From positions 1,434 through 65,433 of the forward strand of contig JAMCWO010000191.1 in assembly GCA_023481165.1 (NCBI GenBank): 64,000 nt of DNA, given 5' to 3'. Of this stretch, positions 2,015-21,231 are shown in pieces. Made by a program: the position numbers and the translations under genes. The stretch is from Planctomycetota bacterium. Its GTDB lineage: Bacteria > Planctomycetota > Phycisphaerae > Sedimentisphaerales > Anaerobacaceae. The number at the start of each line of letters is the position of its first letter. Position 1 is the first letter of the stretch. Under the pieces are notes generated by a model, which was given only the letters and a program-made list of their open reading frames with translations, was not told the origin of the DNA and ran no database searches.

Positions 2015-2428
2015 ATGAGCCAGGTGGAACGCATAGGGGTGTCGCTGGAAAAGGATCTGCTCGCCACGTTCGATGGGTTGATCGCCCGGCGGGGCTATCC
2101 GAGCCGGTCGGAGGCGATCCGCGATCTGATCCGCCAGCAAATCAGCGAGGAGCGCTTGAGCAATCCGAAAGCGACCGCGGTGGCGGCGGTCTTCCTGGTC
2201 TACAACCATCATGCGACGAAGCTGATGGAAGAGTTGGCCGGCTTGCAGCACTCGCACCTGCTTCAGACGATTTCTTCGATGCACATTCATCTGGATGAGC
2301 ACGACTGCCTGGAGGTGATCGTGCTGCGGGGGCCGGCGGGCGAGATCAAGAAGACCGCCGAGAACCTGATCAGCCTAAAGGGCGTCAAGCTCAGCCGCAT
2401 CAACCTCTTGACCACCGAGGCCACCTGA
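2015..2428 (+). CDS. nikR: nickel-responsive transcriptional regulator NikR
   Basis: MSQVERIGVSLEKDLLATFDGLIARRGYPSRSEAIRDLIR is a ribbon-helix-helix N-domain. The C-domain carries YNHH, LQHSH and MHIHLDEHDCLEV, matching the His/Cys nickel-site pattern of NikR. AGAGGA lies 7 nt before the ATG at 2015. Confidence 0.85.
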   Translation: MSQVERIGVSLEKDLLATFDGLIARRGYPSRSEAIRDLIRQQISEERLSNPKATAVAAVFLVYNHHATKLMEELAGLQHSHLLQTISSMHIHLDEHDCLEVIVLRGPAGEIKKTAENLISLKGVKLSRINLLTTEAT

Positions 2429-5400
2429 TCGCCCGGGGAACCGCCCGTACCGAAGCGTCAGGGCCGGCAGCACGAGGAGATTGAGGATGGTGGACGTCAC
2501 CAAACCGCCGAGGATCACGATCGCCATGGGGCCCTCGATCTCGCGGCCCGCTGTCCCTGTACCGACGACCAGGGGCAGCAGGCCCAGCCCCGTGACCAGA
2601 GCCGTCATCAGGATCGGAGCCAATCGCTCGGAAGCGCCCCGCGTGGCCGCCTCCGGGCCCCAGCTCATGCCCTCCACCACCACCAGGTGCTCATAGTGGG
2701 AAATCAGCATGATGGAATTTCGCAGCGTGATGCCGAACACGGTGATGAAACCCACCATGGCGCCAAGCGAAAGCAGGGTTCCCGACAGCAGCAGAATCAG
2801 CACGCCGCCGACCAGGGCGAAGGGTAGGTTCAGCAGGACCAGCAACACGTTGCGATGGTTTCGCAGCACGATGGACAGCAGGAGAATGATCCCGATGCCG
2901 GCCAGGGCGGAATGGATCTCCAGGTCTTCCGTGGCCCGCGCCTGGGCTTGGGCCGCGCCGGCAAATTGCACATAGGTCCCCGCGGGCAGGACCACGGAAG
3001 AGAGAATGTCCCGGCGGGCCTGGGCGACGAAGGAGTTGACGCTGCGTCCCTGGACATTGCACGTGATAGTCTGGACCCGCCGGCCGGTATTGTGCAGGAT
3101 CGTATAGCGCCCGGGGGCCTCGTAGATATCGGCCAGTTGCTGCAGCGGCAGGTACGTGCCGCCGGGACTACGCAGCGGCAGGGCCTGGATTTCATTGATG
3201 GAGCGGCGGTCTTGCGGGTCGAGGAAGACCGCCACGTTGAACACCTGGTCCCCCTGGTAGATTTGCCCCACCACAGCGCCCTGGTAGGCGGAACGAACCG
3301 CATCCAGAACGGTCACCGGATCGAAGCCCCAGCGCAGCAGGTCGCCTTTGCGGACCACAATCTCGATTTCCGGGCTGGTGGGCAGGGCCGCCATCGTAAC
3401 GTCGGCGGCCCCCGGAATCTGCTGCAGTAGATGCATGACTTCCTGCCCCAGGTCTTGGAGCACCTCGAAGTCCTGGCTGAAGATGTCGATGACAACGGCG
3501 GCGCCATAGCCGGAAAGTGTCTCGCCGATGCGTTCCGTCAAAAAGGAGTTGACCTGGTAGGTGATCCCGGGGAACTGGGCCAGCATCTGCCGCACCTGCC
3601 CGGGGGAATACCCGACCGGCGTTCCGCCGGCCGAGGCGAAGCTGATATCGATCTCGCTGGAGCCGATCCCCCGCGTGGATGAGCCCTCTTCGGCCCGGCC
3701 CGTCTTCTGGGACACGTACCGGGCATCCGGCAGCTTCAACAACTCACGTGAGACGAGGTCTCCCAGGCGCAAGGACTCTTCGAGCGAAGTCCCCGGGATC
3801 GTGTTGACGTGGACGATGGCATTGCCTTCCCGCAGGGAAGGCAGAAACTCCGTGTGCAGAAAGAAGAATACGATTACACCGATGACGATCAGGAGGACCA
3901 CAACGCCGATCGCTGCCCAGGGATGTCTGTCGACATGCCTGAGAATCCTGCCATACCCTCTTTTGAGCCAGCGTACCACAGGCGGCTCCTTTTCCACGTT
4001 CGGAGTACCGCCTTTAGGCGGGTAAGACTCTTCTGATCCGCGTAAACGCGGTACTGGGCTCCCCAACGCGCCGAGCAGCAGGGAAGATAGGGCCGGCGTG
4101 ACGGTAAGGGCGACCACCAGCGACGTGAGGACGGCCGCGATGTACGCAATGCCGAGGGGCGCAAAGAGCCGGCCCGCCACGCCGGACAAGGTCAGCACCG
4201 GGACGAATACCAGCACCACAGCGAATGTGGCGAATACCACGGCACTGCGAACCTCGATGGAAGCATCCAGGATCACCCGCAGCACCGGGCGTGGATTTTG
4301 CCGATGGCGATTCTCGCGCAGACGCCGCAGGATGTTCTCCACGTCGATCACGGCGTCGTCCACCACCTCCCCGATGGCCACGGCCAAGCCGCCCATCGTC
4401 ATCGTGTTGAGACTCTGACCGAAGTACCGCAAAACCGTCACGGCCCCCAGGAGCGATAAGGGAATGGCGATGATGGAGATGACCGCCGTGCGCCAGTTGA
4501 ACAGAAATAGAAACAGCACGATCGCGACCAGAATTGCTCCTATTCCCAGCGCCTGCTCCACGTTGCGCAGGGCCGTGTGAATGTAGGTCGCCGGGCGGAA
4601 GAGTTCCGAGTAGAGAACGATGTTCTCCTTCTGCAGCATCGGGCGCAGGTCCGCCACGGCCTGATCCAATTGCGAGGTGATATCGAGTGTGTTGGCCTGG
4701 TATTGCCCCGTAATCAACAGGACCACCCCAGGCTGTCCATTCACGGAGGCGGCCCCAATCGGCGGCGCCTCCGCCTCGACCACCTGTGCCACAACGCCCA
4801 GGGTCACGTTGGCTCCCTCGTGGTGCACCAGAACTGTCTGGGCCAACCCCTCCGGCGTCAGCGACTGGCCTTGCATCCGGAGCGTAAGACGCTGGTTGGG
4901 GGTTTCGATGAAGCCCGCCCCCCGGATGGCGGTGGCCTTGGCCCCGACGCGCAGCACATCGTCCATCGACAGGTTGTATTTGATGAGTTGCGAGGGCCGG
5001 ACCTGGATTTGTAGCTGTTTGACCTGCCCGCCGTAGACCTGCACTTGAGCCACTCCGGGCGCGGCCAGCAGCCGGGGCTTGATCGTCCAATCCGCAATCG
5101 TCCTAAGGTCCATGAGACTGCGGGTCTTCGAGGTCAGTCCCAACTGCAAGACCGTCCCGGTCGAGGAAGTCAGGGGCGAGAGAAAAGGCGTCACGCCTGT
5201 CGGCAAAGGCTCGGTCATCGAGGCCAGCCGTTCGGCCACCATCTGCCGGGCCCGATAGATATCGATGCCCGTATGAAAAACAATGGTGATGGCAGACAGG
5301 CCGTGCAGGGAAGATGAACGAAAGGACTCGATGCCTGCCACTCCACCGATGGTGTTCTCCACGGGCCGTGTGACCAGCATTTCCACCTGCTCGGAGGAAA

Positions 5401-5587
5401 GCCCCGGCGCTTCCAGCCGGATACTGACTTGCGGCGAGGTGAACTCGGGAAAGACGTCGTACTCGGTCTTCGTGAGAGAGTAGATGGCGTAGGCCGCCCA
5501 CAGAGCCGCCAGCGCGATGATGACGCCGCGAAAGCGTAGAGAGAAGCGAACGATGGCGGCGAGAATGCCTGTAGTCTCCAAGTTCAT
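2375..5587 (-). CDS. heavy-metal-efflux type RND permease (CzcA/CusA family)
   Basis: The true start, MNLETTGILAAIVRFSLRFRGVIIALAAL, is at 5587 and overlaps the upstream stop as ATGA. The product is 1070 aa. DVFPEFTSPQVSIRLEAPGLSSEQVEMLVTRPVE is typical of HME-RND N-termini. The protein is large with 12 predicted TM segments. The first 206 codons of the track ORF overlap the MFP gene and are not coding. Confidence 0.9.
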   Translation of the reverse strand: MNLETTGILAAIVRFSLRFRGVIIALAALWAAYAIYSLTKTEYDVFPEFTSPQVSIRLEAPGLSSEQVEMLVTRPVENTIGGVAGIESFRSSSLHGLSAITIVFHTGIDIYRARQMVAERLASMTEPLPTGVTPFLSPLTSSTGTVLQLGLTSKTRSLMDLRTIADWTIKPRLLAAPGVAQVQVYGGQVKQLQIQVRPSQLIKYNLSMDDVLRVGAKATAIRGAGFIETPNQRLTLRMQGQSLTPEGLAQTVLVHHEGANVTLGVVAQVVEAEAPPIGAASVNGQPGVVLLITGQYQANTLDITSQLDQAVADLRPMLQKENIVLYSELFRPATYIHTALRNVEQALGIGAILVAIVLFLFLFNWRTAVISIIAIPLSLLGAVTVLRYFGQSLNTMTMGGLAVAIGEVVDDAVIDVENILRRLRENRHRQNPRPVLRVILDASIEVRSAVVFATFAVVLVFVPVLTLSGVAGRLFAPLGIAYIAAVLTSLVVALTVTPALSSLLLGALGSPVPRLRGSEESYPPKGGTPNVEKEPPVVRWLKRGYGRILRHVDRHPWAAIGVVVLLIVIGVIVFFFLHTEFLPSLREGNAIVHVNTIPGTSLEESLRLGDLVSRELLKLPDARYVSQKTGRAEEGSSTRGIGSSEIDISFASAGGTPVGYSPGQVRQMLAQFPGITYQVNSFLTERIGETLSGYGAAVVIDIFSQDFEVLQDLGQEVMHLLQQIPGAADVTMAALPTSPEIEIVVRKGDLLRWGFDPVTVLDAVRSAYQGAVVGQIYQGDQVFNVAVFLDPQDRRSINEIQALPLRSPGGTYLPLQQLADIYEAPGRYTILHNTGRRVQTITCNVQGRSVNSFVAQARRDILSSVVLPAGTYVQFAGAAQAQARATEDLEIHSALAGIGIILLLSIVLRNHRNVLLVLLNLPFALVGGVLILLLSGTLLSLGAMVGFITVFGITLRNSIMLISHYEHLVVVEGMSWGPEAATRGASERLAPILMTALVTGLGLLPLVVGTGTAGREIEGPMAIVILGGLVTSTILNLLVLPALTLRYGRFPGRSGGLGGQEVDAAELDAL

Positions 5588-6651
5588 TTCCTGGCCTTCT
5601 TGCCTTTCTGTGCCTGCCGGTGCGCTTCCTGGGACAGAAGAAGCTGTGCCCCTCGGACGACGCACCACTGGCCGGCCGAGAAACCTTCCCGCACGAACCA
5701 GCCGCCGGAGACAGGGGTATTCGTGGGAATTTCCCGACGGACAAAGGTGTCCGGGCTCGTCTGCACGTAGATCCAGGCTCGGCCTTGCAGCCAGACGACG
5801 GCGGACGCGGGAACATCGATCCCGCGTATCTCCTGACCGGTCGGGAGAGATGCCACAATGTTCATGCCGGGCAGAAGACCCGTGGCCTTGGCCGGCGCCC
5901 GATAGAAGAAGCTGAATCCCTGGATGCGCGGGTCCGTCCGGGGAGACGCCGAAACGCAGGTGGCCGTTTCCGTCTTTCCAACGGGTGTCTCGATGGTCGC
6001 GCTTGGAGGGGGAGACAACAACTTCGTCCCTACCGGCACCGTGATCTGGATCAGCACCTCCTCCTGGTCCATCAATCGGACGAGCGGGGCGGAGTTTTCC
6101 TCGATCCATTGGGCGATTACAGGCCCCCACTGCTGCCGGAGGAGCGCCGTCTGAGAATGAAGCGCCACTTCCGCCGCCCGTGCCTGGGCCTGGTCCGACA
6201 GCCAAGTGGCCTGCGCCTTCTGGACAGCCTTTTCGGAGGTGCTACGATTGTCTTTATAGAGCGACTGGGCGCGGGTGTACTCCTCCCGCGCGGCCACCAG
6301 TTCGGCCTGGGCACTTTCCTGCTTCGCCTGGGCATCGGCGAAGCGGCTCCTGGAATCGGACAACTGCTGCGTGTCGGAAACAGTCCCGTAGGCCGTGACC
6401 TTCTCCTGAAAGGACATCAAGTTCAGCGGGGCCACCGCGATTCCCCCTTTCGTCTGCTGGGCCGGGCTCAACGTCACCTCATTGTGGTCCACCGGCTTGG
6501 GCGCCATCTTTCCGGCAGGTTGATTGGGATCCAGCGGCCTTCCGGTGCCCTTCCCGTGTCCCAGAATCCATGTCGCCAACAGGGCGCCGCCTCCCGCGAG
6601 GGTCACGACAGCCGTCCAGAGAAACACTCTATTCCTGATCTGTTCGGACAC
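5584..6651 (-). CDS. efflux RND periplasmic adaptor (MFP) subunit
   Basis: GTG start, an N-terminal TM anchor, a coiled-coil segment (AQAKQESAQAELVAAREEYTRAQSLY) and a beta-barrel C-terminus. It sits between the OMF and RND genes. Confidence 0.8.
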   Translation of the reverse strand: MSEQIRNRVFLWTAVVTLAGGGALLATWILGHGKGTGRPLDPNQPAGKMAPKPVDHNEVTLSPAQQTKGGIAVAPLNLMSFQEKVTAYGTVSDTQQLSDSRSRFADAQAKQESAQAELVAAREEYTRAQSLYKDNRSTSEKAVQKAQATWLSDQAQARAAEVALHSQTALLRQQWGPVIAQWIEENSAPLVRLMDQEEVLIQITVPVGTKLLSPPPSATIETPVGKTETATCVSASPRTDPRIQGFSFFYRAPAKATGLLPGMNIVASLPTGQEIRGIDVPASAVVWLQGRAWIYVQTSPDTFVRREIPTNTPVSGGWFVREGFSAGQWCVVRGAQLLLSQEAHRQAQKGKKARK

Positions 6652-10931: not shown

Positions 10932-11678
10932 TCAGTGCGGATGCCGGTGGCGCAGGATGTGGGGGCGTTCGAGGCCGTGGGCCAGCATGAGCGCCTCATC
11001 GTTCAGAAGGTCGGCCGTGGGTCCGTCCGCCACGATCTGGCCGTGGTCCAGCACCAACGCGCGCGGACAGCTTTCCACGACGAATTCCAGATCGTGCGTC
11101 GCGATGATCTGCGCGATGGGCAGCCGGGCGAGCAGGGCCATCAATTCCCGTCGGCCGCGCGGGTCCAGCTCGCTGGTCGGCTCGTCCAGCGCGAGCACCC
11201 GCGCGTCACACGCCAGGAGCCCCGCCAGGCAGACGCGGCGCTTCTCGCCGCGACTGAGGTGATGAGGGAGCCGTTCTTCAAAACCGGCCAGCCCGACCTG
11301 CGCCAACGCCTCGGAGACGCGAGCGGCCAACGCGGCCCCGCGCAGGCCCCACTGCTGCGGACCGAAGGCGACATCCTCCCACACGGTGGGGCAGAACAAC
11401 TGATCGTCCGGGTCTTGAAACAGCAGGCCCACCTGGGCGCGGATCGTTTCCAGGTGCGGCGCGGCCACCGGGGTCCCGAAGACCCGCACGGCCGGCTCCG
11501 CCGCGGGGCGTTCCGGCAGCAGACCGTTGAGGTGCAGGAGCAACGTGGACTTGCCCGCGCCGTTCGGGCCGAGCAGGCCCACCCGTTCGCCTTCCGCGAG
11601 AGAAAAACTGACGTCCTGCAAGGCGGCCGTGCCATCCGCGTAGCGATAACTGAGGCCCCGGACTTCCAACGTGTTCAT
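10932..11678 (-). CDS. ECF-type nickel/cobalt transporter ATPase (NikO/CbiO)
   Basis: MNTLEVRGLSYRYADGTAALQDVSFSLAEGERVGLLGPNGAGKSTLL (Walker A), LSRGEKRRV (signature) and VLALDEPT (Walker B). The ATG at 11678 overlaps the upstream stop (ATGA). Confidence 0.9.
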   Translation of the reverse strand: MNTLEVRGLSYRYADGTAALQDVSFSLAEGERVGLLGPNGAGKSTLLLHLNGLLPERPAAEPAVRVFGTPVAAPHLETIRAQVGLLFQDPDDQLFCPTVWEDVAFGPQQWGLRGAALAARVSEALAQVGLAGFEERLPHHLSRGEKRRVCLAGLLACDARVLALDEPTSELDPRGRRELMALLARLPIAQIIATHDLEFVVESCPRALVLDHGQIVADGPTADLLNDEALMLAHGLERPHILRHRHPH

Positions 11679-12289
11679 GTCTTCCATCCTCGTGCGCACA
11701 TGGCGGCGTAGATGCGCTCGGCGTGCTCGAGACTGCGGAGAAACAAATGCGCGATGACGCCGGCGCCGGACCGCCAGACCCAGAGCCGGCCGTCGGTGAA
11801 CGTGCGGCTGCGGCGCGCCCGGCGCATGCGCCCCATCTCGTCGTGGAGCAGAAAGACGTAGCGGTGCATCAGCGCCAGCGTGGTCACCAGCAAGGACGGC
11901 ACGCGGGCCCGTCCCAGCGCCTGGAGGAGGTCGGTGAAGCGGGTCGTGCTGGACAGCAGGACCATGCACAAGAGGCAGAGCGTGCTCCGGGCCAGCATGG
12001 CGGCGAAGACGCGGATGCCGTTGTGTTGCAGGAGCGCCAGCAGCGCGATTCCCAGCGCGAACGGCTCGACCCAGAGGAGCTTGCGGGCCAGCACACGGGC
12101 CGGGAGTCGGGCGAAAGCGGCTATCAGCAACAGCGCCGCAGCTCCCAGCGCGTAGGCGCGCCATGCCGAAAGGGGCAGCAGCACGACGACAAAAACAAAC
12201 ACCAAAGCGCCGATCAATTTGACCGTCGCCGGGAGCCGGTGAATGGGGCTATCCCGATGCTGGTAGAGGCTGAGCAGTTGATGATCCAC
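11675..12289 (-). CDS. ECF transporter transmembrane (T) component (NikQ/CbiQ)
   Basis: IHRLPATVKLIGALVFVFVVVLL followed by a multi-TM region and the ARxR-rich loop typical of CbiQ. It lies between the M and O components. GTG start. Confidence 0.8.
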   Translation of the reverse strand: MDHQLLSLYQHRDSPIHRLPATVKLIGALVFVFVVVLLPLSAWRAYALGAAALLLIAAFARLPARVLARKLLWVEPFALGIALLALLQHNGIRVFAAMLARSTLCLLCMVLLSSTTRFTDLLQALGRARVPSLLVTTLALMHRYVFLLHDEMGRMRRARRSRTFTDGRLWVWRSGAGVIAHLFLRSLEHAERIYAAMCARGWKT

Positions 12290-12310
12290 GGCGGAAATCC
12301 TCTCTCGACC

Positions 12311-13270
12311 TCACGCGGACTTCGCCCGGGCGAAGCCGGTCGGCGTCAGGAAACGCGCCAGCAGATAGGCAAAGACAAACGCCGCCACCGTGCCCACACA
12401 ACCGGCGACAATCGTGGAGAGCACGGCCGACCCGATCCCCGGCACCGCATAGTCGGGAAACGGCGACGGCGCTACCGGGGTCCCGGCGGCCCGGTGGGCA
12501 AAACCCAGGACGGCCGCAACGGTTTCCAAGCCATCCGGCCAACTGCAAGCAAAGGGCGTCAAGAACACGACCAGCCCCAGGGCCAGGAGCAGGCCCTGCG
12601 CCAGCAGGCGCCGGCGGTTCGAGGGAAGGTCCGCGGCGGCGCCTTCCAGGAGCAGCTCCGGACGCACGCGAAGGATCGTCGCGATCACCAGTGTGGTAAG
12701 GAGCGCTTCGCCGAGGCCGATGAGCATGTGAAGGCCGGCCATGGCCGGAAAGCCGACGGCCCAAGCCACGGTCCCCGACCACGCCAACTCACCGGTACAG
12801 GCCAGCGCGGCGGCCACCGGCGAACACCAGGAGGCAAAGGCCACCGCCAAAAGCTGGCCGCGCGGTCCGCCCCCCGCGCTGCGCCGAACGACCGCGTAAA
12901 CCACGTACCCGACCCCGGGGGCCACCAGGGCCATATTGAGCAGGTTCGCGCCCAGGGCCGTCACACCGCCATCGGCGAACATAAAACATTGCAGAATCAC
13001 CACCGCGCTCATGACCACGACCGCCCCGCTCGGGCCGAGGAGAACCGCGGCCAGGACCCCGCCGAGCAAATGGCCGGAGGTCCCGCCGGCCACGGGGAAA
13101 TTCAACATCTGCGCCGTGAAAAGGAAGGCCGCGGTCAAGCCCAACAGGGGGACGCGCCGCGGCGGAAGACAGCGCCGGACCCGCAGCAGAGCGAGCCCCA
13201 GCCCCGCCGCCGCCAGGGCGCCGGTCGTCGTTGCCGTCTTGGCATCGATGAACCCATCGGGGATGTGCAC
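12311..13270 (-). CDS. NikM/CbiM substrate-capture component fused to a PDGLE (NikN/CbiN-like) C-terminal domain
   Basis: The (M)HIPDGF N-terminus is characteristic of CbiM/NikM. The C-terminal extension contains WPDGLE plus a final TM helix. The GTG start is preceded by GAAGGAGGAG. Confidence 0.8.
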   Translation of the reverse strand: MHIPDGFIDAKTATTTGALAAAGLGLALLRVRRCLPPRRVPLLGLTAAFLFTAQMLNFPVAGGTSGHLLGGVLAAVLLGPSGAVVVMSAVVILQCFMFADGGVTALGANLLNMALVAPGVGYVVYAVVRRSAGGGPRGQLLAVAFASWCSPVAAALACTGELAWSGTVAWAVGFPAMAGLHMLIGLGEALLTTLVIATILRVRPELLLEGAAADLPSNRRRLLAQGLLLALGLVVFLTPFACSWPDGLETVAAVLGFAHRAAGTPVAPSPFPDYAVPGIGSAVLSTIVAGCVGTVAAFVFAYLLARFLTPTGFARAKSA

Positions 13271-13872: not shown

Positions 13873-14136
13873 GCCCCTGCCGGCAGGCAGGCGAGGACCG
13901 GGAGACATCGGGCGCACCGCGGTTGCGCCGCCCGCTTGTAGATCGACGATCACGCACGAGACGGCCGATAAATCTCTTGCCGGGCGACAGCATCATGGTT
14001 ACAATACAGATGCTGGATATGAGGTATGACGACCATGGGCGCCGGCACCTCATCTACGTCCGCCCGGCCTTCGCCTCAACGGGAGGGAGTTCGTCGTGTA
14101 GGAGTACGCCACAGGTCTGCTTGCAGGAGACAGATC

Positions 14137-14946
14137 ATGCGGAAACACCGAGCCTTCACCCTCATCGAGCTGCTCGTCGTCATCTCCATCATCGCCCTGC
14201 TGATGGCCATTCTGATGCCGGCCCTGGCGCGGGCCCGCAACCAGGCGCGCACCGTGGCCTGCCGGGCCCTGCTCAAGCAGTGGGGCCCGATCTGGTACAT
14301 GTACTGCAACGACAACAACGGCTACTTCAGCAACGGCAACCTCACCGATATCGGCTGGACCCGCGGCGAATGGGTCATCGTTCTTCGCTCCGCCTATGAG
14401 ACGAGATCGGACATCCTCCGCTGCCCGATGGCGGTGAAGCGGCTTCCTGACGGTGCCAGTCATGGTGGACCGTTCCACACCTACGTCATGGGAGGCGGCG
14501 GCACAGGGAACCTCCGGGAGGAAGCCAGCTACGGGCAGAACAACTGGCTCTTCAATCCGCCGCCCGGCGTCGCGAAGATCCAGGGCCGTCCTTCCGAGTG
14601 GCACTGGCGGACGATGAATGTCCGGCAGGCGGCCGAGATCCCGGTGTTTGCCGACACGATGTGGCGGGGGGGCGGGCCCCTCGACAAGGGCGCCAAAGGC
14701 GAGCCGCCGCTGTTCAACGGCCAGTGGGTCGATGCCGGCGCTGAGATGCGGCACTTCTGCATCGACCGGCACAACGGCTTCATCAACCACCTGTTCCTGG
14801 ATTGGTCGGTGCGCCCCGTGGGCCTCAAGGAGCTCTGGACCCTCAAATGGCACAAAACGTTCGACGTCCGCGGCCCCTGGACCACCGGCGGCGGTGTGAC
14901 CGCGGCCGATTGGCCCGAATGGATGCGGAAATTCAAGGACTATTGA
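14137..14946 (+). CDS. prepilin-type N-terminal cleavage/methylation domain protein (DUF1559-like)
   Basis: [34 protein letters not shown]. The C-terminal [14 protein letters not shown] resembles the H-X9-DG motif of planctomycetal DUF1559 proteins. A GGAGA SD precedes the ATG at 14137. Confidence 0.75.
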
Positions 14947-15016
14947 CGGACTCCGCGTACGATGGAGAGTCAGAAAGGGCCGGCGACTCCGTTCTCCGCC
15001 AGCCCTTTTCCGTGCT

Positions 15017-15093
15017 TGTAGGGGCAGGCCCCCGTGCCTGCCCTCTTGGCTTTGTGCCCGTCCCGGGAGGGCGACCACAGGGGGTCGCCCTAC
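15017..15093. repeat. double-hairpin palindromic element (TGTAGGGG...CCCTAC family), copy at the kinase ORF 3' end
   Basis: TGTAGGGGCAGGCCCCCGTGCCTGCCC ... GGGCGACCACAGGGGGTCGCCCTAC. The left arm differs by 1 nt from the copy at 19336. The kinase ORF stop codon (15090-15092) lies inside the right arm. Confidence 0.7.
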
Positions 15094-16928
15094 GGTTTGG
15101 GTACGGCAGCGCTTTGGATGCAGAAGAACCGCACCTCGCTCAGACCAGCGGACGGCGTACTGCCCCAGCCTTTGTCGATGGTCAGCTTAACGTATTTGGC
15201 CGAGACCCCCCCGAAGCTGACGATCGTGTTCGCTGTATAACCGGGCTTGCCGGTCGCTTTGGCGAATTCCGGCACGTTAGCCACGGCTGTCCACGTCGTG
15301 CCATCGGTGGAGTACTCGATCTTGACGGTCTGGGCGCCAAAGCCGATGAAGGACTCTATCGGCTGATTGGAGTTCCACACCCATAGCTCATGCAGGGTGT
15401 AGACCTTGTCGAACTGGTACTGAATCCAGTGCGGCGCGGTGGTGCTGAGCCACATGTCGGTTCCATTCGTCGAATGTCCATCGCTCTTGTCGAGCCCGGA
15501 GCCATCGATCGTCCTCTCCGGCCCCATGTTAACCTGGGACGGGGAAGCTGTGGCCGTGATGCTCTTGATCGGATACGTCAAGGCGGCAGTCGTGAACTTC
15601 AGGATCGGCCCCTTGATAGGAGTAGCGCCCGAGATCACGAAATCCACCCGCCAGTAGTAGGTCTGGCTGACTTTCAGCGGCTCTGCGGGGTCGTAGGTAC
15701 TCGCTGTCTGCCCCTGGCTCACCAACACGCCCTGTGGATTCGTTCGACTGGCCGTGCTGACCACTTCGAGAGAGGTGCCGAAGTAGAGATCGCAGGCTTG
15801 GGCGAACGAAGGTGAGATCCAACTCAGGATGACATCGCAAGGCACATCTGAGGCTTTGGGTCCGGGAGTCACCAGCGATTCCATGAGAACCCCAAGGTCT
15901 TTCTCGTCCACGATACCATCGCCCCAGGCAAAGGGACCGATGTCACACAAGGACGTGTTCTTCCCCCAATTGTCCGCCAGAAGGCTCATGTCTTTCGCAT
16001 CGACCTTGCCGTCGCCGTTGAAGTCCATGACGGGAATGATCGGTGCCTGCCAGAGGTCCCATCCGCCGACGCCGCCGGGACACGGGCCTTCGAAATCATC
16101 GAAATAGCACCACCGCCCGTCAGGCGAAATGCTCGAAATGCAATTGGAGTAGTTGGTGTTGAGAGTTGGCCCAAGGTTCCTTGGTGGACCCCAGACGCTG
16201 GTCTTAGAGGGGCGAGTCGTTATCCACGTGTCCCATGCTCCAAAGCCACCAGGGCGATTCGACGCGATAAGGAGCGTTAGGGCATCAGGCGATATCCACT
16301 GGCACATATCATGAAGGGAACTGTTGACCGTTGCGCCGAGATTCACTGGCGTTCCCCAGGCATCTGAGGTGGTTGCCCGCTTGCTCACCCAGATGTCCCA
16401 GCCACCATATCCGCCGGGACGAATCGATATGAAATAGAACTCTAAGCCGTCCGGCGAAACGATTGGCTGAGCGTCCTTCCCCTGTATGATGATGTTTGGA
16501 GCCAGACTTGCCGCCGGTCCCCAGGGAGCATCTCTGGTGGCACGTGTGGTCGAGCACAAATCGTTGCCCCTTTGGAAATACAAGGTCAGTCCATCTGCCG
16601 ATATGCTCCCGGTTGCGTCCCAACCTGGTGAATTCACCTGCGCTCCCAAATTGGCGGGTGGACCCCATGCGTCTGGTACGCTGGCTCGCTTGGTCACCCA
16701 GATATCGAACCCGCCATATCCTTCGGGGCGATTGGAAGTGAAGTACAACTCCAGACCATCAGGGGAGAGAATGGCATTATAATCACGGGACGCACTGTTA
16801 ACGGTTGGCCCCAGATTCGCAGGCGTGCCGAAGACGAAATCCGCGTGCGCGGGAGGCGCATCAAGACCCGCGAGGAAACAAAGACTCAGTAGTGATAGTC
16901 CGGCCGTGGGAATCTCGAACAGTTTCAT
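15090..16928 (-). CDS. alternative model: independent secreted PD40-repeat / dockerin-like / discoidin protein starting at an internal ATG
   Basis: The internal ATG at 16926-16928 is preceded by GGAAGGTGTGAG. It encodes MKLFEIPTAGLSLLSLCFLAGLDAPPAHA-DF, a complete signal peptide, at codon 1153 of the long ORF. Confidence 0.4.
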   Translation of the reverse strand: MKLFEIPTAGLSLLSLCFLAGLDAPPAHADFVFGTPANLGPTVNSASRDYNAILSPDGLELYFTSNRPEGYGGFDIWVTKRASVPDAWGPPANLGAQVNSPGWDATGSISADGLTLYFQRGNDLCSTTRATRDAPWGPAASLAPNIIIQGKDAQPIVSPDGLEFYFISIRPGGYGGWDIWVSKRATTSDAWGTPVNLGATVNSSLHDMCQWISPDALTLLIASNRPGGFGAWDTWITTRPSKTSVWGPPRNLGPTLNTNYSNCISSISPDGRWCYFDDFEGPCPGGVGGWDLWQAPIIPVMDFNGDGKVDAKDMSLLADNWGKNTSLCDIGPFAWGDGIVDEKDLGVLMESLVTPGPKASDVPCDVILSWISPSFAQACDLYFGTSLEVVSTASRTNPQGVLVSQGQTASTYDPAEPLKVSQTYYWRVDFVISGATPIKGPILKFTTAALTYPIKSITATASPSQVNMGPERTIDGSGLDKSDGHSTNGTDMWLSTTAPHWIQYQFDKVYTLHELWVWNSNQPIESFIGFGAQTVKIEYSTDGTTWTAVANVPEFAKATGKPGYTANTIVSFGGVSAKYVKLTIDKGWGSTPSAGLSEVRFFCIQSAAVPKP

Positions 16929-19900
16929 CTCACACCTTCCCTTCTGCCCGAAGGCAACAGACATTGTTGGAATCGTATTGACAGGTCTTTCTGCAGAGAA
17001 GACGAGTTCACAGTCGAAAGGCAGGTCGATGACGTGCCGCTGGCCGGCCGCTGCGTCGAACCACGAGTCGAACGCCGACCGGCCACTCGTGACGGCGGAC
17101 CACCGCTTCATATCAGCCTCGGCTCTGGCTCGTTCGTGCAGAGCGTCGTAGCACCGCGCCCGCACTAAGTAGGCGTGGGCGTCCCACGGGTCGGTCGCAA
17201 TGCGCTGGGTGTGCCGGGCCACCAGTTCTCGGAGGTGCTCGCCCACCGTTTGGGCGGGCCCCAGCGCCTCGACCGTTGTGACGGCGGGAGCAAGGTCCGC
17301 CGTCCAAATCTCGAAATACGGTGCACCCAGTTCAAAAACGAGTTTCGCCCCCTCCGTGGCCCACGAGCCTACCGTGATCGGACCACCCAGCGTCTGGGCA
17401 GGCTGATTCTGGCCCAGGCGATATACCCACAGTCCCGTCGGGTTTTCCAGACCGCCGCTGCCGCCCAGGCACAGTTCGTTACTGCCCGGAGACCAGGCCA
17501 ATGCGCCCCAGCCATCGGAGGGCGAAGGCAGAGGCCATCTGGCGATCAACGTCTGGGAGGCCAGGTCTATGACCTTCAGGGCTGTGCCCTCTAGGCAGGC
17601 CATGCGTTGATTGTCGGGCGACACCGACGGGTTCCATTGCGGACACGGAATGACCCGTTTCAGCTCGGGGTCTTCCCCTGCGATGGAGACGCAATAGAGC
17701 GTGCTGTCTGAACGCGATTTGTAGTAGACGCTGTTCGAATCCCGACCCCAGGAGGGCCAGACCCCGACAGCCAGACGCCGTGGCGCGGTCCCATCGTCAT
17801 TCATGAGCCAAACCTCTTCATCCGTGCTGCCGATGGGTTCGTTCTTCGCGTCCGCGGTAACGAATTCCGGGACGGGCAGGAACTGTCGATCCCGCACAAA
17901 AGCAATATGCCGCCCATCCGGCGACCACCGGGGGTACTTGCCGGGGACGATCAGCAGATCCGTTTTTCCCGTGCTAGGATCGAAGACGGCAATACCGCTA
18001 CGGCCCTGCACTCCCAGACTAAAGGCCAGCCTCTTGCCATCCGGCGACCACGCGGCACTAAAGCCGTCCGTAGTCAGCCGCCGGCCTTTGGCGGAGAGCA
18101 GGCGATGGGTCTCCTCCGCCTCCACCATCGGCAGAAAGGCCGCCCCTGCCGGCGCGGGACCTGCCGGATGCCAGGACTGTCCGGCCGTCAACGTGTCAAA
18201 GACATACTTGGCGCACCAGTTCCGGAACTTCTGTCGTGCCTCCTGGCCGGGGCTGATGAGCCGACGAAACAAGGCGGCAGCTTCGTCGTAGTCGCCCACC
18301 GCTGTCAGCGCGCCGAACAGGTGATTGTGTAGGACCGACACATCTTCCGCCCCCGGCTGGACCTCCGCGATGATGCGACCGTAATCCTTCATCCGCAGGA
18401 GCGTGTCGCAGCGTTGAACGGACAGTTCCACGTGTTGGGGGCTGTCCTCTGCCGTCAGTTCAATCGCTTTGTCATACTCGCCAATCGCCTCCTGGCAGCG
18501 GTCCAGCTCTCGGAGAGCGGTCGCACGCAGGGAGTGCGCGAGCGGATCAGAATCGCGCAACATCTCCATGGCACGTGCATCCTCGTTCATGCGGTCATAC
18601 TTCCGCGATGCGTACCAGGTATAAGCCCGCAGTCGGAGAGACTCGTAGTGCTTCGAGTTGAGCCGCAGGGCTTCCTCCAGTGCCTCCAGTTGCTCGTGCA
18701 CCGTGATGGCCATCATCGCCCGTAAGTAGAATGCCTCCGCCGTCTTCGGAAGCAGGGCCTCCGCCTTCTGACGGTACTCTTCGATCTGCTTGAACTTATC
18801 GGGGTTGAGTGGACCGCTCTCCCCAAGAATGCGGCCCCAGAGCAAATGGGCTGCCCCCGCAATGTCCGCGCGCTCGTTCACCAGGTCCTTCAGTACGCTC
18901 AGTGCCTCTGCGAAACGGCGGTCGTCCGCGAGAATCCTGGCGTAAAGAAGCTGGGCCTCGGGTCCCGCGTACCTATTCCGAAGGAGCGATTTGATCGTCT
19001 CCAAAGCCGCCTCTCGATCTCCATTGTCATATTGCCCACGAGCTTGGGACAGCGCGGCCTCCGCTAATTTCAAACGGTCTTGATTCCACGCCCAAAGGAT
19101 GATGCTTCCGGCGCCAACCACAACCACCATCATCAGGGCAGCGATGGCCTGCGCGCGGTGTCGCCGGAGGAACTTGGCCAGACGATAGGCTGGGCCGGGG
19201 CCGCGGGCCAGAACCGGCTCGTGCTCCAAATGCCGCCGCACGTCTTCGGCCAAACCGCTGACGGTCTCGTAGCGCCGGACACGGTCCTTCTCCAGGGACT
19301 TCATCACGATCCAGTCCAGATCGCCGCGGACCTCTTGTAGGGGCAGGCCCCCGTGTCTGCCCAACTTCGGGCGGCCACGGGGGGCCGCCCCTACAGGTCG
19401 CCGTTCCCGCGTGGCGGTTCGGATCCGGGTCGAGGGCTTGACCGGCTCCTGCTCTCGGATCACCCGCTGCATCTCGATGTAGCCAGCTTGGCGGAGTTCC
19501 TCTTCACTGAAGGGGGTCGTCCCGGTCAGCAGTTCATAGAGCAACACGCCCAGCGAGTAGATGTCCGAGCGGGTGTCGATGTCCAGATCGCTCAGTTCCG
19601 CCTGCTCCGGACTCATGTAGGCCGGGGTGCCGATGATATGAGCGTAACGAGTGAAGAGCGTCTTTTCGGTCAGCTTCTGGTTCGTGGCCTTAGCTATCCC
19701 GAAGTCGATCACCTTGGGGACGGGCTTACCATCATGGTGCGTAACCATCACATTGGAAGGTTTGAGATCGCGATGGATGATGCCCTTCTGATGGGCGTGC
19801 TGCACGGCGTTGCAGACCTGTAGGAATAATACCAGCCGGTCTTTCGTGCTCAGGCTGTTCTTGTCGCAGTACTCGGTGATCGAAACGCCCTGGACCAGCT

Positions 19901-20384
19901 CCATGACAAAGTAGGGCCGGCCGGTATCGGTCGCTCCGGCGTCGAGGACCTTGGCGATACAGGGATGGTCCATCAGGGCAAGAGCCTGCCGCTCCGCCTC
20001 GAACCGGGCGATGACCTGGCGGGTATCCATGCCCAGCTTGATGATCTTGAGAGCCACCTTGCGGCGGAGGGGCTCGGTCTGCTCGGCCAGGTAGACGACC
20101 GCCATGCCGCCTTCCCCGATCTTCTCCAGGAGTTTGTAGCGGCCGATGATTGTGCCGGGGCCTTCCGTAAGGACGGGCATATCCAGCACCAGGGCCGAGT
20201 CCCACGGGGCAGATTCCAGGAAGTTGTCCCTGACCTCGTGGGCCTTGAGCAGAACCCGGATGCGGGCCAACAGACCGGCATCCTGGCCGCAGGCCGCTTG
20301 GAGGTAGGCCTCCCGCTGAGCCGGGGCCTGGCCCAGAGCTTCGTAGTAGATCGCCTCTTCGTTGGTCTTGTGCTCCGTGGACAC
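15090..20384 (-). CDS. giant Ser/Thr protein kinase ORF: kinase, TM helix, TPR, TolB-like PD40 propeller, then signal-peptide-like segment, PD40 repeats, dockerin-like pair and F5/8 type C domain
   Basis: GTG start after AAAGGAG. Kinase motifs are GEGGMAVVYLA, VALK, HRDLKPSN, DFG and GTPAYMSPE. The TM helix is AIAALMMVVVVGAGSIILWAW. PD40-type repeats include WSPDGKRLAF and WSPDGRHIAF. The dockerin-like pair is DFNGDGKVDAKD and GDGIVDEKD. The discoidin-like C-terminus includes WIQYQFDKVYTLHELWVWN and AKYVKLTI. Confidence 0.85.
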   Translation of the reverse strand: MSTEHKTNEEAIYYEALGQAPAQREAYLQAACGQDAGLLARIRVLLKAHEVRDNFLESAPWDSALVLDMPVLTEGPGTIIGRYKLLEKIGEGGMAVVYLAEQTEPLRRKVALKIIKLGMDTRQVIARFEAERQALALMDHPCIAKVLDAGATDTGRPYFVMELVQGVSITEYCDKNSLSTKDRLVLFLQVCNAVQHAHQKGIIHRDLKPSNVMVTHHDGKPVPKVIDFGIAKATNQKLTEKTLFTRYAHIIGTPAYMSPEQAELSDLDIDTRSDIYSLGVLLYELLTGTTPFSEEELRQAGYIEMQRVIREQEPVKPSTRIRTATRERRPVGAAPRGRPKLGRHGGLPLQEVRGDLDWIVMKSLEKDRVRRYETVSGLAEDVRRHLEHEPVLARGPGPAYRLAKFLRRHRAQAIAALMMVVVVGAGSIILWAWNQDRLKLAEAALSQARGQYDNGDREAALETIKSLLRNRYAGPEAQLLYARILADDRRFAEALSVLKDLVNERADIAGAAHLLWGRILGESGPLNPDKFKQIEEYRQKAEALLPKTAEAFYLRAMMAITVHEQLEALEEALRLNSKHYESLRLRAYTWYASRKYDRMNEDARAMEMLRDSDPLAHSLRATALRELDRCQEAIGEYDKAIELTAEDSPQHVELSVQRCDTLLRMKDYGRIIAEVQPGAEDVSVLHNHLFGALTAVGDYDEAAALFRRLISPGQEARQKFRNWCAKYVFDTLTAGQSWHPAGPAPAGAAFLPMVEAEETHRLLSAKGRRLTTDGFSAAWSPDGKRLAFSLGVQGRSGIAVFDPSTGKTDLLIVPGKYPRWSPDGRHIAFVRDRQFLPVPEFVTADAKNEPIGSTDEEVWLMNDDGTAPRRLAVGVWPSWGRDSNSVYYKSRSDSTLYCVSIAGEDPELKRVIPCPQWNPSVSPDNQRMACLEGTALKVIDLASQTLIARWPLPSPSDGWGALAWSPGSNELCLGGSGGLENPTGLWVYRLGQNQPAQTLGGPITVGSWATEGAKLVFELGAPYFEIWTADLAPAVTTVEALGPAQTVGEHLRELVARHTQRIATDPWDAHAYLVRARCYDALHERARAEADMKRWSAVTSGRSAFDSWFDAAAGQRHVIDLPFDCELVFSAERPVNTIPTMSVAFGQKGRCEMKLFEIPTAGLSLLSLCFLAGLDAPPAHADFVFGTPANLGPTVNSASRDYNAILSPDGLELYFTSNRPEGYGGFDIWVTKRASVPDAWGPPANLGAQVNSPGWDATGSISADGLTLYFQRGNDLCSTTRATRDAPWGPAASLAPNIIIQGKDAQPIVSPDGLEFYFISIRPGGYGGWDIWVSKRATTSDAWGTPVNLGATVNSSLHDMCQWISPDALTLLIASNRPGGFGAWDTWITTRPSKTSVWGPPRNLGPTLNTNYSNCISSISPDGRWCYFDDFEGPCPGGVGGWDLWQAPIIPVMDFNGDGKVDAKDMSLLADNWGKNTSLCDIGPFAWGDGIVDEKDLGVLMESLVTPGPKASDVPCDVILSWISPSFAQACDLYFGTSLEVVSTASRTNPQGVLVSQGQTASTYDPAEPLKVSQTYYWRVDFVISGATPIKGPILKFTTAALTYPIKSITATASPSQVNMGPERTIDGSGLDKSDGHSTNGTDMWLSTTAPHWIQYQFDKVYTLHELWVWNSNQPIESFIGFGAQTVKIEYSTDGTTWTAVANVPEFAKATGKPGYTANTIVSFGGVSAKYVKLTIDKGWGSTPSAGLSEVRFFCIQSAAVPKP
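19336..19395. repeat. 60-nt double-hairpin palindromic element inserted in frame in the kinase ORF
   Basis: TGTAGGGGCAGGCCCCCGTGTCTGCCCAACTTCGGGCGGCCACGGGGGGCCGCCCCTACA. The termini TGTAGGGG/CCCCTACA are inverted repeats. It is translated as about 20 aa (PVGAAPRGRPKLGRHGGLPLQ) just before the conserved RGDLDWIVMKSLEKD segment. Confidence 0.75.
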
Positions 20385-20664: not shown

Positions 20665-21231
20665 CTACAAACCGTCGATCTGCCCCAGTTCCACGCGTAG
20701 CCAGGCGCGGGCGTAGTCCCAACCCCGCTCGGCCGTCGCGTGCGAGATGCCCAAGGCTTGCGCCGCCTGCTCGATGGTCAGGCCCGCGAAATAGCGGAGC
20801 TTCACCAGATCGGCCTTGAGCGGGTCCTGCCGGGCAAGCTTGGCCAGTGCCTCGTCCAACGCCAGTATCTCCTGGGCTTGGGAAGCGTCGTCCGCCGCCG
20901 GAAATTCCTCGAGGTCCACCGGCCGGCGGCCAGCACCGCGCTTCAGGCTCTTCTTGCGGCGGGCATTGTCGATCAGGATACGCCGCATAGCCTCGGCGGC
21001 GGCCTTGAAGAAATGACCCTTGCTGTCCCAGCCATGTCCCTCATGGCCCACCAGGCGGAGGTATGCCTCATGCACCAGGGCGGTCGCTTGGAGGGTCTGG
21101 CCGGGAGGCTCAAGGGAGAGCTTTTGGGCGGCGAGAAGGCGGAGTTCCTCATAGACCAGGGGCAAGAGTTCGTCCGTAGCTTTCGCGTCCCCCCGTTCGA
21201 TGGCATTCAAGATGCGTGTGACATCACTCAT
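20665..21231 (-). CDS. ECF sigma factor of the Ser/Thr-kinase-associated type (TIGR02999-like)
   Basis: [38 protein letters not shown] ... [10 protein letters not shown] is the distinctive N-terminus of this ECF subgroup. The region 4 HTH is [21 protein letters not shown]. The gene lies directly upstream of the kinase. Confidence 0.85.

Follow-up and report, generated by a model that had tools for sequence, protein, structure and literature searches.

A secreted PD40/discoidin gene nested in frame, with its own initiation region, inside a Planctomycetota receptor kinase gene

Introduction

In-frame internal initiation gives N-terminally truncated proteoforms of bacterial proteins, such as CheA-L/CheA-S, SctQ/SpaO-C, IF2 and ClpB (PMC13515050), and has been mapped genome-wide in bacteria (bioRxiv 10.1101/520783). 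Two-polypeptide phage endolysins likewise come from single genes (PMC9430671). Here we analyse a 64,000-nucleotide stretch of a Planctomycetota genome (contig JAMCWO010000191.1; hereafter the window), in which the 3' third of a 1764-codon open reading frame (ORF) for a receptor Ser/Thr kinase is shown, by comparison with its homologues, to be a complete gene for a secreted PD40/dockerin-like/discoidin protein, fused in frame with its own initiation region and signal peptide. As in the bacterial proteoforms, a Shine-Dalgarno sequence (SD) and a start codon lie in frame within a longer ORF, with two proteins predicted from one stop codon. Unlike in those systems, the short form would gain a Sec signal peptide and export, the long form being a membrane receptor, and the initiation region, whose use we infer, is conserved at the nucleotide level in more than 100 paralogues and identical to the leader of free-standing genes. 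The locus resembles the endolysin genes in its in-frame nested ORF with a separate ribosome-binding site and in a C-terminal product that equals the C-terminal module of the full-length protein, but the kinase system is cellular and its products would be tethered in one case and free or exported in the other.

Pairs of a sensor kinase and a periplasmic partner encoded by separate genes are familiar from LuxP-LuxQ, TorT-TorS and ChvE-VirA, and Rosetta-stone fusions are commonplace. In the family described here a secreted protein of ligand-binding type and a kinase are neighbours at some loci (L060 and L186-L190 of our survey) and are fused in the window; unlike in ordinary fusions, the partner's initiation region and signal peptide are intact within the kinase fusion. 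Cassette exchange at conserved junctions is known for the orphan modules of Rhs and CdiA-CT and for pilE/pilS gene conversion. Our family shares with these a mosaic make-up, a short conserved junction at the breakpoints and extra copies of the variable module nearby. However, its stand-alone PD40 copies are complete and expressible (SD, ATG and signal peptide) rather than silent as in Rhs/CdiA-CT and pilS. We saw no dedicated recombinase, and the family lacks any toxin-immunity logic. In Planctomycetota, sigma factors of the PF07638 type lie next to Hanks kinases, and a PF07638 gene stands directly upstream of the window kinase, with the same arrangement at L190-L192. To our knowledge a secreted PD40 partner, nested in or adjacent to such pairs of an extracytoplasmic function (ECF) sigma factor and a kinase, has not been described previously, and we found no description of the kinase/PD40 family in the literature. 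Three things are unusual here: a nested product with its own signal peptide inside a receptor ectodomain, an initiation region that is conserved almost letter for letter over more than 100 loci, and the coincidence of this region with the recombination breakpoints.

Results

An internal gene start within the kinase ORF

All features of the nested gene lie on the minus strand of the window. Those needed for the argument are as follows (aa, amino acids; TM, transmembrane).

15090-20384, minus strand: complete ORF of 1764 codons with a GTG start, comprising Hanks-type Ser/Thr kinase, TM helix, TPR, PD40 propeller, junction, four PD40 repeats, dockerin-like segment and discoidin domain
19086-19148, minus strand: signal-anchor helix TM1, aa 413-433, flanked on its N-terminal side by many Arg and Lys residues (Kyte-Doolittle maximum 2.44)
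17040-19085, minus strand: predicted extracytoplasmic N-module, aa 434-1115, with TPR region, first PD40 beta-propeller and a 3-helix TPR-like tail at aa 1046-1098 (Pfam TPR/PD40, AlphaFold)
16929-17039, minus strand: conserved segment at the junction, aa 1116-1152, RHVIDLPFDCELVFSAERPVNTIPTMSVAFGQKGRCE, which forms part of the fused protein and whose 3' third is also the nested gene's 5' leader
16933-16945, minus strand: extended SD AGAAGGGAAGGUG, with the core GGAAGGUG at 16933-16940, 4 nucleotides (nt) before the ATG (anti-SD pairing and codon fixation)
16926-16928, minus strand: internal in-frame start codon, Met1153 (ATG in 175/176 loci)
16842-16928, minus strand: Sec-type signal peptide of the nested product, aa 1153-1181, predicted cleavage AHA|DF (n-, h- and c-regions read from the sequence)
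15093-16841, minus strand: mature part of the nested product, aa 1182-1764 (Pfam, AlphaFold and stand-alone counterparts)

A sequence-only reading of this DNA had pointed to a signal peptide, an SD and an ATG inside the ORF, and all three are confirmed. Codon 1153 is the ATG at 16926-16928, with GGAAGGTG / GGAAGGTGTGAG directly before it and MKLFEIPTAGLSLLSLCFLAGLDAPPAHA|DF after it, so that an in-frame start and an SD stand at functional spacing (GGAAGGUG, 4 nt, AUG). The calculated pairing of this site with the 16S anti-SD is -11.3 kcal/mol, the strongest among the 89 in-frame ATG, GTG and TTG codons of the ORF (mean -3.9, sd 2.5). The ORF's own GTG start, which is preceded by AAAGGAG, pairs at -7.9 kcal/mol and is thus weaker than codon 1153. 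The internal initiation signal at codon 1153 exceeds chance. The whole 64-kb window contains no tRNA, rRNA or Rfam family at the gathering threshold, and hence the organism's own anti-SD is not readable from it. The same reading had drawn attention to a similar context before a gene at 1819. There, ttcGGAGGTGTGAGTATG (motif from 1831 on the minus strand, near 1819-1831, in ORF 875-1864) does precede a lipoprotein-like signal peptide (MRGCLASCLLIGL...), which indicates that the genome uses canonical GGAGGTG ribosome-binding sites at true starts; this 329-aa comparison ORF has no Pfam match. The leader of the nested gene was found once in the window, with no other copies.

The signal peptide is laid out as MK / LFEIPTAGLSLLSLCFLAGL / DAPPAHA|DF, with a positive n-region, a hydrophobic h-region and a c-region with small residues at -3 and -1, as is typical for Sec and signal peptidase I. 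It lies at aa 1153 of a 1764-aa product and is N-terminal only if translation starts at codon 1153; stand-alone homologues carry theirs at the N-terminus.

The same element starts stand-alone secreted genes

Homologous loci were collected by two scans that were independent of gene calls: a peptide-pattern scan with one genome per species, giving 65 loci and often many per genome (L001-L065), and a 22-nt DNA-pattern scan of metagenomes, giving at least 120 loci (L066-L185). Comparison across these loci shows that the internal initiation region is the element with which stand-alone secreted paralogues start. In the stand-alone genes L045, L053, L077, L090, L104, L108, L146, L175 and L189 the upstream DNA is unrelated and homology sets in sharply from about -38 nt, at (TGTCT)RTTGCCTTCGGGCAGAAGGGAAGGTGTGAGATG, and runs on through the ATG and signal peptide. 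At L060 the kinase, whose sensor is of another type (WD40), ends at a stop codon, and ~130 nt further on come the leader, the ATG and a separate gene for a PD40 protein with signal peptide. L190 has the same leader of hairpin and SD (TTGCCC-AAAA-GGGCAG-AAAGGAAGG) before a different class of signal peptide, in a stand-alone PD40 gene that is divergent from an ECF-sigma/kinase pair.

When a leaderless junction was used as the seed, a protein search gave hundreds of stand-alone PD40 proteins, 325-410 aa in length. The MKLFEIP-type signal peptide starts 23 stand-alone PD40 proteins, and many others have unrelated signal peptides. After the A-x-A, all inspected stand-alone homologues begin alike (A-x-A|DFTFGxPxNLGP), even where the signal peptide is unrelated, which fixes the predicted signal peptidase site in the window at AHA|DF. 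Furthermore, L189 and L187 encode stand-alone PD40-discoidin proteins of 623 and 619 aa that end ...GLSEVRFFYIPDR..., and the window ORF ends like them (...GLSEVRFFCIQSAAVPKP). On this similarity the two proteins are the direct counterparts of the predicted 612-aa product.

Selection at the nucleotide level

We measured the information held at third codon positions in the 62 peptide-pattern loci. It is 1.63 bits from -30 to -16 nt, 1.21 bits from -15 to -1 and 1.24 bits from 0 to +14, compared with ~0.5 bits in the sequence that follows directly and encodes the signal peptide and PD40 module. When 750 codons were aligned for 101 fused loci, a set partly biased by DNA-pattern ascertainment, the junction was the sole spot above 1 bit. 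For 50 fused loci that had been retrieved by protein pattern, codon choice was then compared with the genes' own usage. Arg is encoded by AGG in 49/50 (background 0.09), the two Gly by GGG in 50/50 (0.22) and by GGA in 45/50 (0.13), Ala by GCC in 50/50 (0.49) and Cys by TGT in 34/35 (0.37). These comparisons show purifying selection on the initiation region at synonymous sites inside fused genes. About 50 nt stay near-invariant in numerous genomes and habitats, between flanks that diverge to 40-60%.

A 108-codon antisense ORF with a GTG start (window 16825-17151, plus strand) overlaps the junction exactly. It is probably spurious, since coding constraint on the antisense strand would not account for the conservation of all three codon positions in the core.

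Two hairpins were predicted in the leader RNA.

16944-16957, minus strand: hairpin H2, UUGCC-UUCG-GGCAG, directly 5' of the SD (predicted)
16985-17003, minus strand: hairpin H1, GUCUUC-UCUGCAG-AAAGAC, with one C.A mismatch in the window (RNAalifold)

The stem of H2 is invariant in 61 sequences, with changes confined to the loop, and L190 keeps the stem with another loop (UUGCCC-AAAA-GGGCAG). In the family H1 has the form GUCUUU-N7-AAAGAC and lies about 57-75 nt upstream of the ATG. Compensatory changes occur at 5/7 of its pairs, 93.7% of cells are paired as opposed to at most 63% in slid controls and 0/500 shuffles reach its score, in a set of related sequences and in a hairpin that lies inside translated sequence. 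A further hairpin, CCUUC/GAAGG, that would sequester the SD was rejected as the variation in its 5' arm is uncompensated. Rfam gave only chance-level matches (E at least 7) in 16700-17300.

The fusion is a conserved single frame

The arrangement in the window could in principle be an artefact or a very recent accident, an indel or a fresh stop loss having joined two genes in this genome only. The gene-start look inside an ORF suggests as much, and the exact protein is not on record in the public protein collection; nothing further speaks for it. A whole-protein search was made, and the best 120 homologues were taken, from NCBI, JGI and ENA assemblies of Planctomycetota, Phycisphaerae and Sedimentisphaerales metagenome-assembled genomes. 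All of these best 120 are uninterrupted proteins of 1500-2300 aa whose alignments span the junction, at 54-68% identity and with a coverage of 82-100%. Among the matches listed, at least 300 open in-frame codons precede the ATG in 117 of the 149 judgeable loci, which come from many assemblies and assemblers, and a nearer stop is found in 32, several of which are true stand-alone genes. Both alternative upstream frames are Arg/Ser-rich, resemble non-coding DNA and contain stops, which argues against a frameshift or assembly indel. Frame +1 ends in the window with a TGA overlapping the ATG (ATGA) and is closed about 10-13 codons upstream in other loci; a programmed +1 shift followed by termination and reinitiation was considered, and no slippery site supports it. 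An artefact is thus most improbable. Judged from its homologues, the 1764-codon ORF is a genuine conserved single frame of a large, paralogue-rich family in Phycisphaerae/Sedimentisphaerales-type Planctomycetota.

This bears on several proposals of the sequence-only reading. Its sequencing or assembly indel, or recently lost stop, is refuted by the uninterrupted homologues and loci. Its division of the locus into two proteins holds insofar as the C-terminal 612 aa form a separate secreted protein in other genomes, but in the window the ORF is a conserved single frame. The comparison of orthologous loci that it proposed showed separate kinase and PD40 genes at some loci (L060, L186-L189) and an unbroken fusion in the best homologues, the latter being the outcome it had named as refuting an artefact.

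Of the 176 loci among the matches listed, 175 have ATG as the internal start and one has GTG, and the ATG is invariant in alignment A2. At the protein level Met1153 is replaced by Val twice and by Thr once among the homologues, with no other substitutions. The junction is the best-conserved part, with the consensus LPFDCELVFSAERPVNxIPxMSVAFGQKGRCEMKLFEIPMVVxSLLGLCLLSGLDAPPAxADFTFG, and A-x-A|DFTFG is conserved in fused genes. The codons before the ATG had been taken to be featureless; the ~37 codons there turn out to be the best-conserved part of the junction in homologues. The suggestion that they are former intergenic DNA fits the last ~13 codons, which match the untranslated leader of the stand-alone genes, but not the part further upstream, which is conserved as protein and modelled as a beta-meander at moderate confidence.

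Several observations concern the make-up of the family. The proteins P0023 and P0121 and locus L050 carry the source labels Solirubrobacterales or Acidobacteriota, all other homologues being Planctomycetota/Phycisphaerae, and are probably from mis-binned contigs. Frameshifts, nonsense codons or truncations interrupt L005, L006, L011, L015, L028, L050, L062, L064, L065, L079, L122 and L178 (in L079 a stop closes the frame 129 codons short of the internal ATG). Such loci may be pseudogenes or reflect errors of sequencing, and the nested gene is still intact in several of them. A short class (L066, L071, L080, L085, L092, L114, L117, L121, L123, L162, L172, L181, L020, L044 and L056) joins aa 1-490, the kinase and TM helix, straight to aa 1040-1152 without the long TPR region and first propeller, giving N-modules of about 590-670 codons as compared to about 1136-1316 in the long class. 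The DNA-motif scan also returned L109, L138, L164 and L171, unrelated TPR genes encoding ALGQKGRLDEAI, which were set aside as off-target. ALGQKGRLDEAI resembles AFGQKGRCEM in peptide and DNA, either by coincidence or as a hint that the junction descended from a degenerate TPR repeat.

Both modules are predicted to lie outside the cytoplasm

From their sequences the family members are ECF-sigma-linked receptor Ser/Thr kinases with a cytoplasmic kinase, one TM helix and an extracytoplasmic TPR and beta-propeller region. By the positive-inside rule the TPR/propeller module is placed outside the cytoplasm, since the N-terminal flank of TM1 is strongly positive. Only two stretches of the protein are hydrophobic, namely TM1 (aa 410-433, Kyte-Doolittle 2.44) and the internal segment (aa 1153-1176, 1.62). 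The second follows a translocated domain, and this opens the reading of a two-TM receptor whose internal segment returns the chain to the cytoplasm and leaves the PD40/dockerin-like/discoidin part intracellular. However, the segment is short and weakly hydrophobic, and its polarity (positive charges N-terminal, acidic residues C-terminal) is that of a signal peptide and wrong for an N-out helix. The homologous modules are Sec-exported proteins.

Natural variants also delete the segment with all else unchanged. These 'clean' fusions join the N-module straight to the DFTFG of the PD40 module, without leader or hydrophobic segment, as in P0082 (...SGRLPSD|PDAPPAQVDFTFG...); further cases are the upstream ORFs of L041, L108, L169 and L175 and the proteins P0121, P0125, P0130, P0150, P0154 and P0155. 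Their existence indicates that both halves lie on the same, outer side of the membrane and that the segment is not a topology-reversing TM helix, in agreement with the sequence-only reading, which had argued against a second TM helix. On this comparative evidence the internal segment is signal-peptide-like rather than TM-like, and a two-TM receptor is very unlikely.

A cut after translation would also release the PD40-discoidin part. Here a single polypeptide is translocated and then cleaved near the A-x-A, by signal peptidase I acting on the re-inserted segment or by another periplasmic or membrane protease. In its favour, fused genes always keep the frame open and conserve both the hydrophobic segment and the A-x-A|DF motif. 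In contrast, after a translocated domain of 720 aa the segment would be expected to enter N-out/C-in, with the A-x-A at the cytoplasmic face and off the signal peptidase active site, which in Sec/signal peptidase I topology lies away from that face. Cleavage also leaves the synonymous-site conservation of the SD and ATG unexplained. We regard it as improbable, though less so than a second TM helix.

In AlphaFold models the first propeller has a predicted local distance difference test score (pLDDT) of about 75-94, the 3-helix tail 95-98 and the second propeller 83-97. The junction is modelled as a four-stranded beta-meander (RHVIDL, CELVFSAE, TMSVAFGQ, MKLFEIP) followed by a hydrophobic helix, at pLDDT 66-79. 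Pfam has no family match on the junction, and a fold search of its model against the PDB gave no significant match (best E = 0.2); the larger model matches generic propellers only, including tandem propellers and TolB. In the long product the junction is probably also a translated, folded linker, which would explain the protein-level conservation upstream of about -38 nt.

Complementary distribution and cassette exchange

Should the cell require the PD40 module in tethered as well as free form, kinases lacking the internal start and signal peptide are expected to be accompanied by a separate gene for the free protein. Among clean-fusion kinases found without reference to the leader, a secreted PD40 gene is next in 4/5 (L186, L187, L188 and L189), the exception being P0130, where a Kelch-propeller gene is next. 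Clean fusions found via the leader have a separate PD40 gene in 4/4, by ascertainment. Leader-retaining fusions have a second PD40 gene downstream in only 3/77 (80 such fusions had at least 1.2 kb downstream and 6 PD40-like matches, of which 3 were the same gene frameshifted and were dropped). For the unbiased set of clean as against leader-retaining fusions, Fisher's exact test gives p = 1e-4. The window kinase fits the pattern, as its leader is kept and no PD40 match was obtained in the next ORF downstream (14050-15078).

Between pairs of sequences, identity in the N-module (aa 820-1105) is only weakly correlated with identity in the PD40 module (aa 1185-1435; r = 0.37), and only 4/74 sequences have the same nearest neighbour in both. 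In P0002 and P0004 the sliding identity is ~85-98% up to -12 residues, ~50% from +28 to +270 and 85% from +290; it drops at the junction from 90% to 49% and switches again near the end of the PD40 module. These comparisons show recombination breakpoints between paralogues at the junction. The switches in identity there mark the junction as a crossover point and the PD40 block as an exchangeable cassette.

At L001 a second leader copy (5203-5290) lies ~90 nt past the stop of the fused gene, joined to the last ~20 codons of the dockerin-like tail (...AEGKVDIEDLKVFMTYYEKANPPAQP, then the stop). It looks like the deletion remnant of a downstream cassette of signal peptide and PD40 module, formed between similar GGNAAGGTG sequences.

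Recombination also bears on the strongest alternative, in which the ORF fuses domains into one product only. The internal ribosome-binding site and the signal peptide would then be relics without a role in initiation, and the DNA would be kept as an anchor for recombination or gene conversion or as an RNA or regulator site. The coincidence of breakpoints with the junction and the end of the PD40 module is in its favour, as are a frame that is always kept, a junction segment conserved as protein in its upstream part, and the clean fusions, which show a single-chain architecture to be workable. It meets difficulties, however. Gene conversion homogenises within a genome and leaves ~50 nt of near-invariance across genomes unexplained. 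The second breakpoint region (+290 to +330 codons) rises only weakly in third-position information, to 0.76-0.90 bits in 3/4 of the 10-codon bins and 0.50 in the fourth, as compared to 1.03-1.44 at the junction. The start codon is substituted only by GTG in the DNA set, the A-x-A and h-region features are maintained in fused genes, and the complementary distribution with downstream stand-alone genes is unexplained. A single product seems possible to us but rather unlikely.

Domains and neighbouring genes

The remaining features of the ORF and its upstream neighbour are as follows.

19464-20138, minus strand: protein kinase domain, aa 83-307 (Pfam PF00069, E = 6e-45)
about 16065-16832, minus strand: four PD40 repeats of the nested product (Pfam)
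15873-16025, minus strand: dockerin-like Ca-binding pair (two loops visible in the sequence)
15156-15548, minus strand: F5/8 type C discoidin domain, aa 1613-1743 (Pfam)
20665-21231, minus strand: ECF sigma factor gene directly upstream of the kinase (Pfam PF07638, E = 5e-61)

The kinase domain scores 154.1 bits against a cut-off of 31.7 and contains the catalytic motifs HRDLKPSN (aa 204-211; HRD 204-206) and DFGIAK (aa 227-232; DFG 227-229). The PD40 profile PF07676 gives 103.5 bits over 4 stretches of the window protein, and the discoidin profile 39 bits against a cut-off of 28.2. The putative dockerin region has two DxDGxxD-type loops (DFNGDGKVD and GDGIVDEKD). Dockerin PF00404 has no match in the window protein at E <= 0.01, and the scores of homologues (18.4 and 14.8 bits) are under the cut-off of 22.9. 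As no profile match passes the threshold, the segment merits only the label 'dockerin-like'.

The ECF sigma factor is likely to be the signalling partner or operon mate of the kinase, and the neighbourhood of sigma factor, kinase and PD40 gene recurs at L190-L192. Elsewhere the window encodes an AcrB-type RND transporter (PF00873, E = 1.6e-232) and a CbiM/PDGLE cobalt-uptake component beside an ABC ATPase (2375-6205 and 10932-13270, both minus strand), without evident link to the nested gene.

Discussion

Collectively, the comparisons favour a model in which the internal start is used and yields, besides the full-length receptor, a 612-aa precursor for export and from it a mature protein of 583 aa, a reading to which we give a probability of roughly 0.55. 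The second initiation at 16928 raised by the sequence-only reading is likely, because the ribosome-binding site is under nucleotide-level selection in fused genes. In this model ribosomes would also initiate at codon 1153, giving the 612-aa precursor for Sec export, and signal peptidase I would cut after Ala1181 to release the free 583-aa protein into the periplasm or the medium. Read-through from the kinase start would give the full-length receptor, in which the weakly hydrophobic segment would let translocation continue and the same PD40 module would stay tethered outside the membrane. One DNA stretch would thus supply both the tethered and the free sensor module, for which other loci use separate genes, and the near-identical junction DNA may serve as the crossover where paralogues swap PD40 cassettes.

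Several points weigh against internal initiation. In the junction model MKLFEIP forms the fourth meander strand, and part of the conservation serves the full-length protein. The nucleotide conservation could reflect a recombination anchor or the binding of a regulator. The window RNA around the start is no more stable than shuffled sequences (z = +1.05) and H1 is mismatched there; since the RNA is not unusually stable, our case for structure is confined to the covariation of H1 in the family and the loop-only variation of H2. As ribosomes arriving from upstream would open up the leader hairpins, initiation at the internal site may be inefficient, and it may also need an mRNA that is processed or started internally. 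The sequences are phylogenetically related, so that the p-values overstate their independence, and loci L066-L185 were retrieved by means of this very DNA motif; unbiased for that stretch are only the protein-derived loci and L001-L065.

The extension of the model to the family is more tentative, and we hold it at slightly less than even odds. It would involve dual coding throughout, with a secreted gene nested in the kinase ectodomain giving a tethered and a free PD40 copy, and with the ~50-nt region acting as crossover for dozens of paralogues per genome. That the free and tethered PD40/discoidin modules act as a binding-protein/sensor pair is speculation, by analogy with the periplasmic binding proteins of sensor kinases.

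What at first has the appearance of a mis-assembly is a real, selected feature, as judged by comparative evidence from more than 150 loci and not from a single gene. It exposes a blind spot in annotation, since gene callers give the long ORF only, and points to a translation-initiation region that doubles as coding sequence and recombination anchor. If the model is correct, alternative initiation would switch a module between a kinase-tethered and a free, Sec-exported fate. It would also offer a sensing hypothesis for the large ECF-sigma/Ser-Thr-kinase families of Planctomycetota, in which a free binding protein may work together with a tethered copy of itself.

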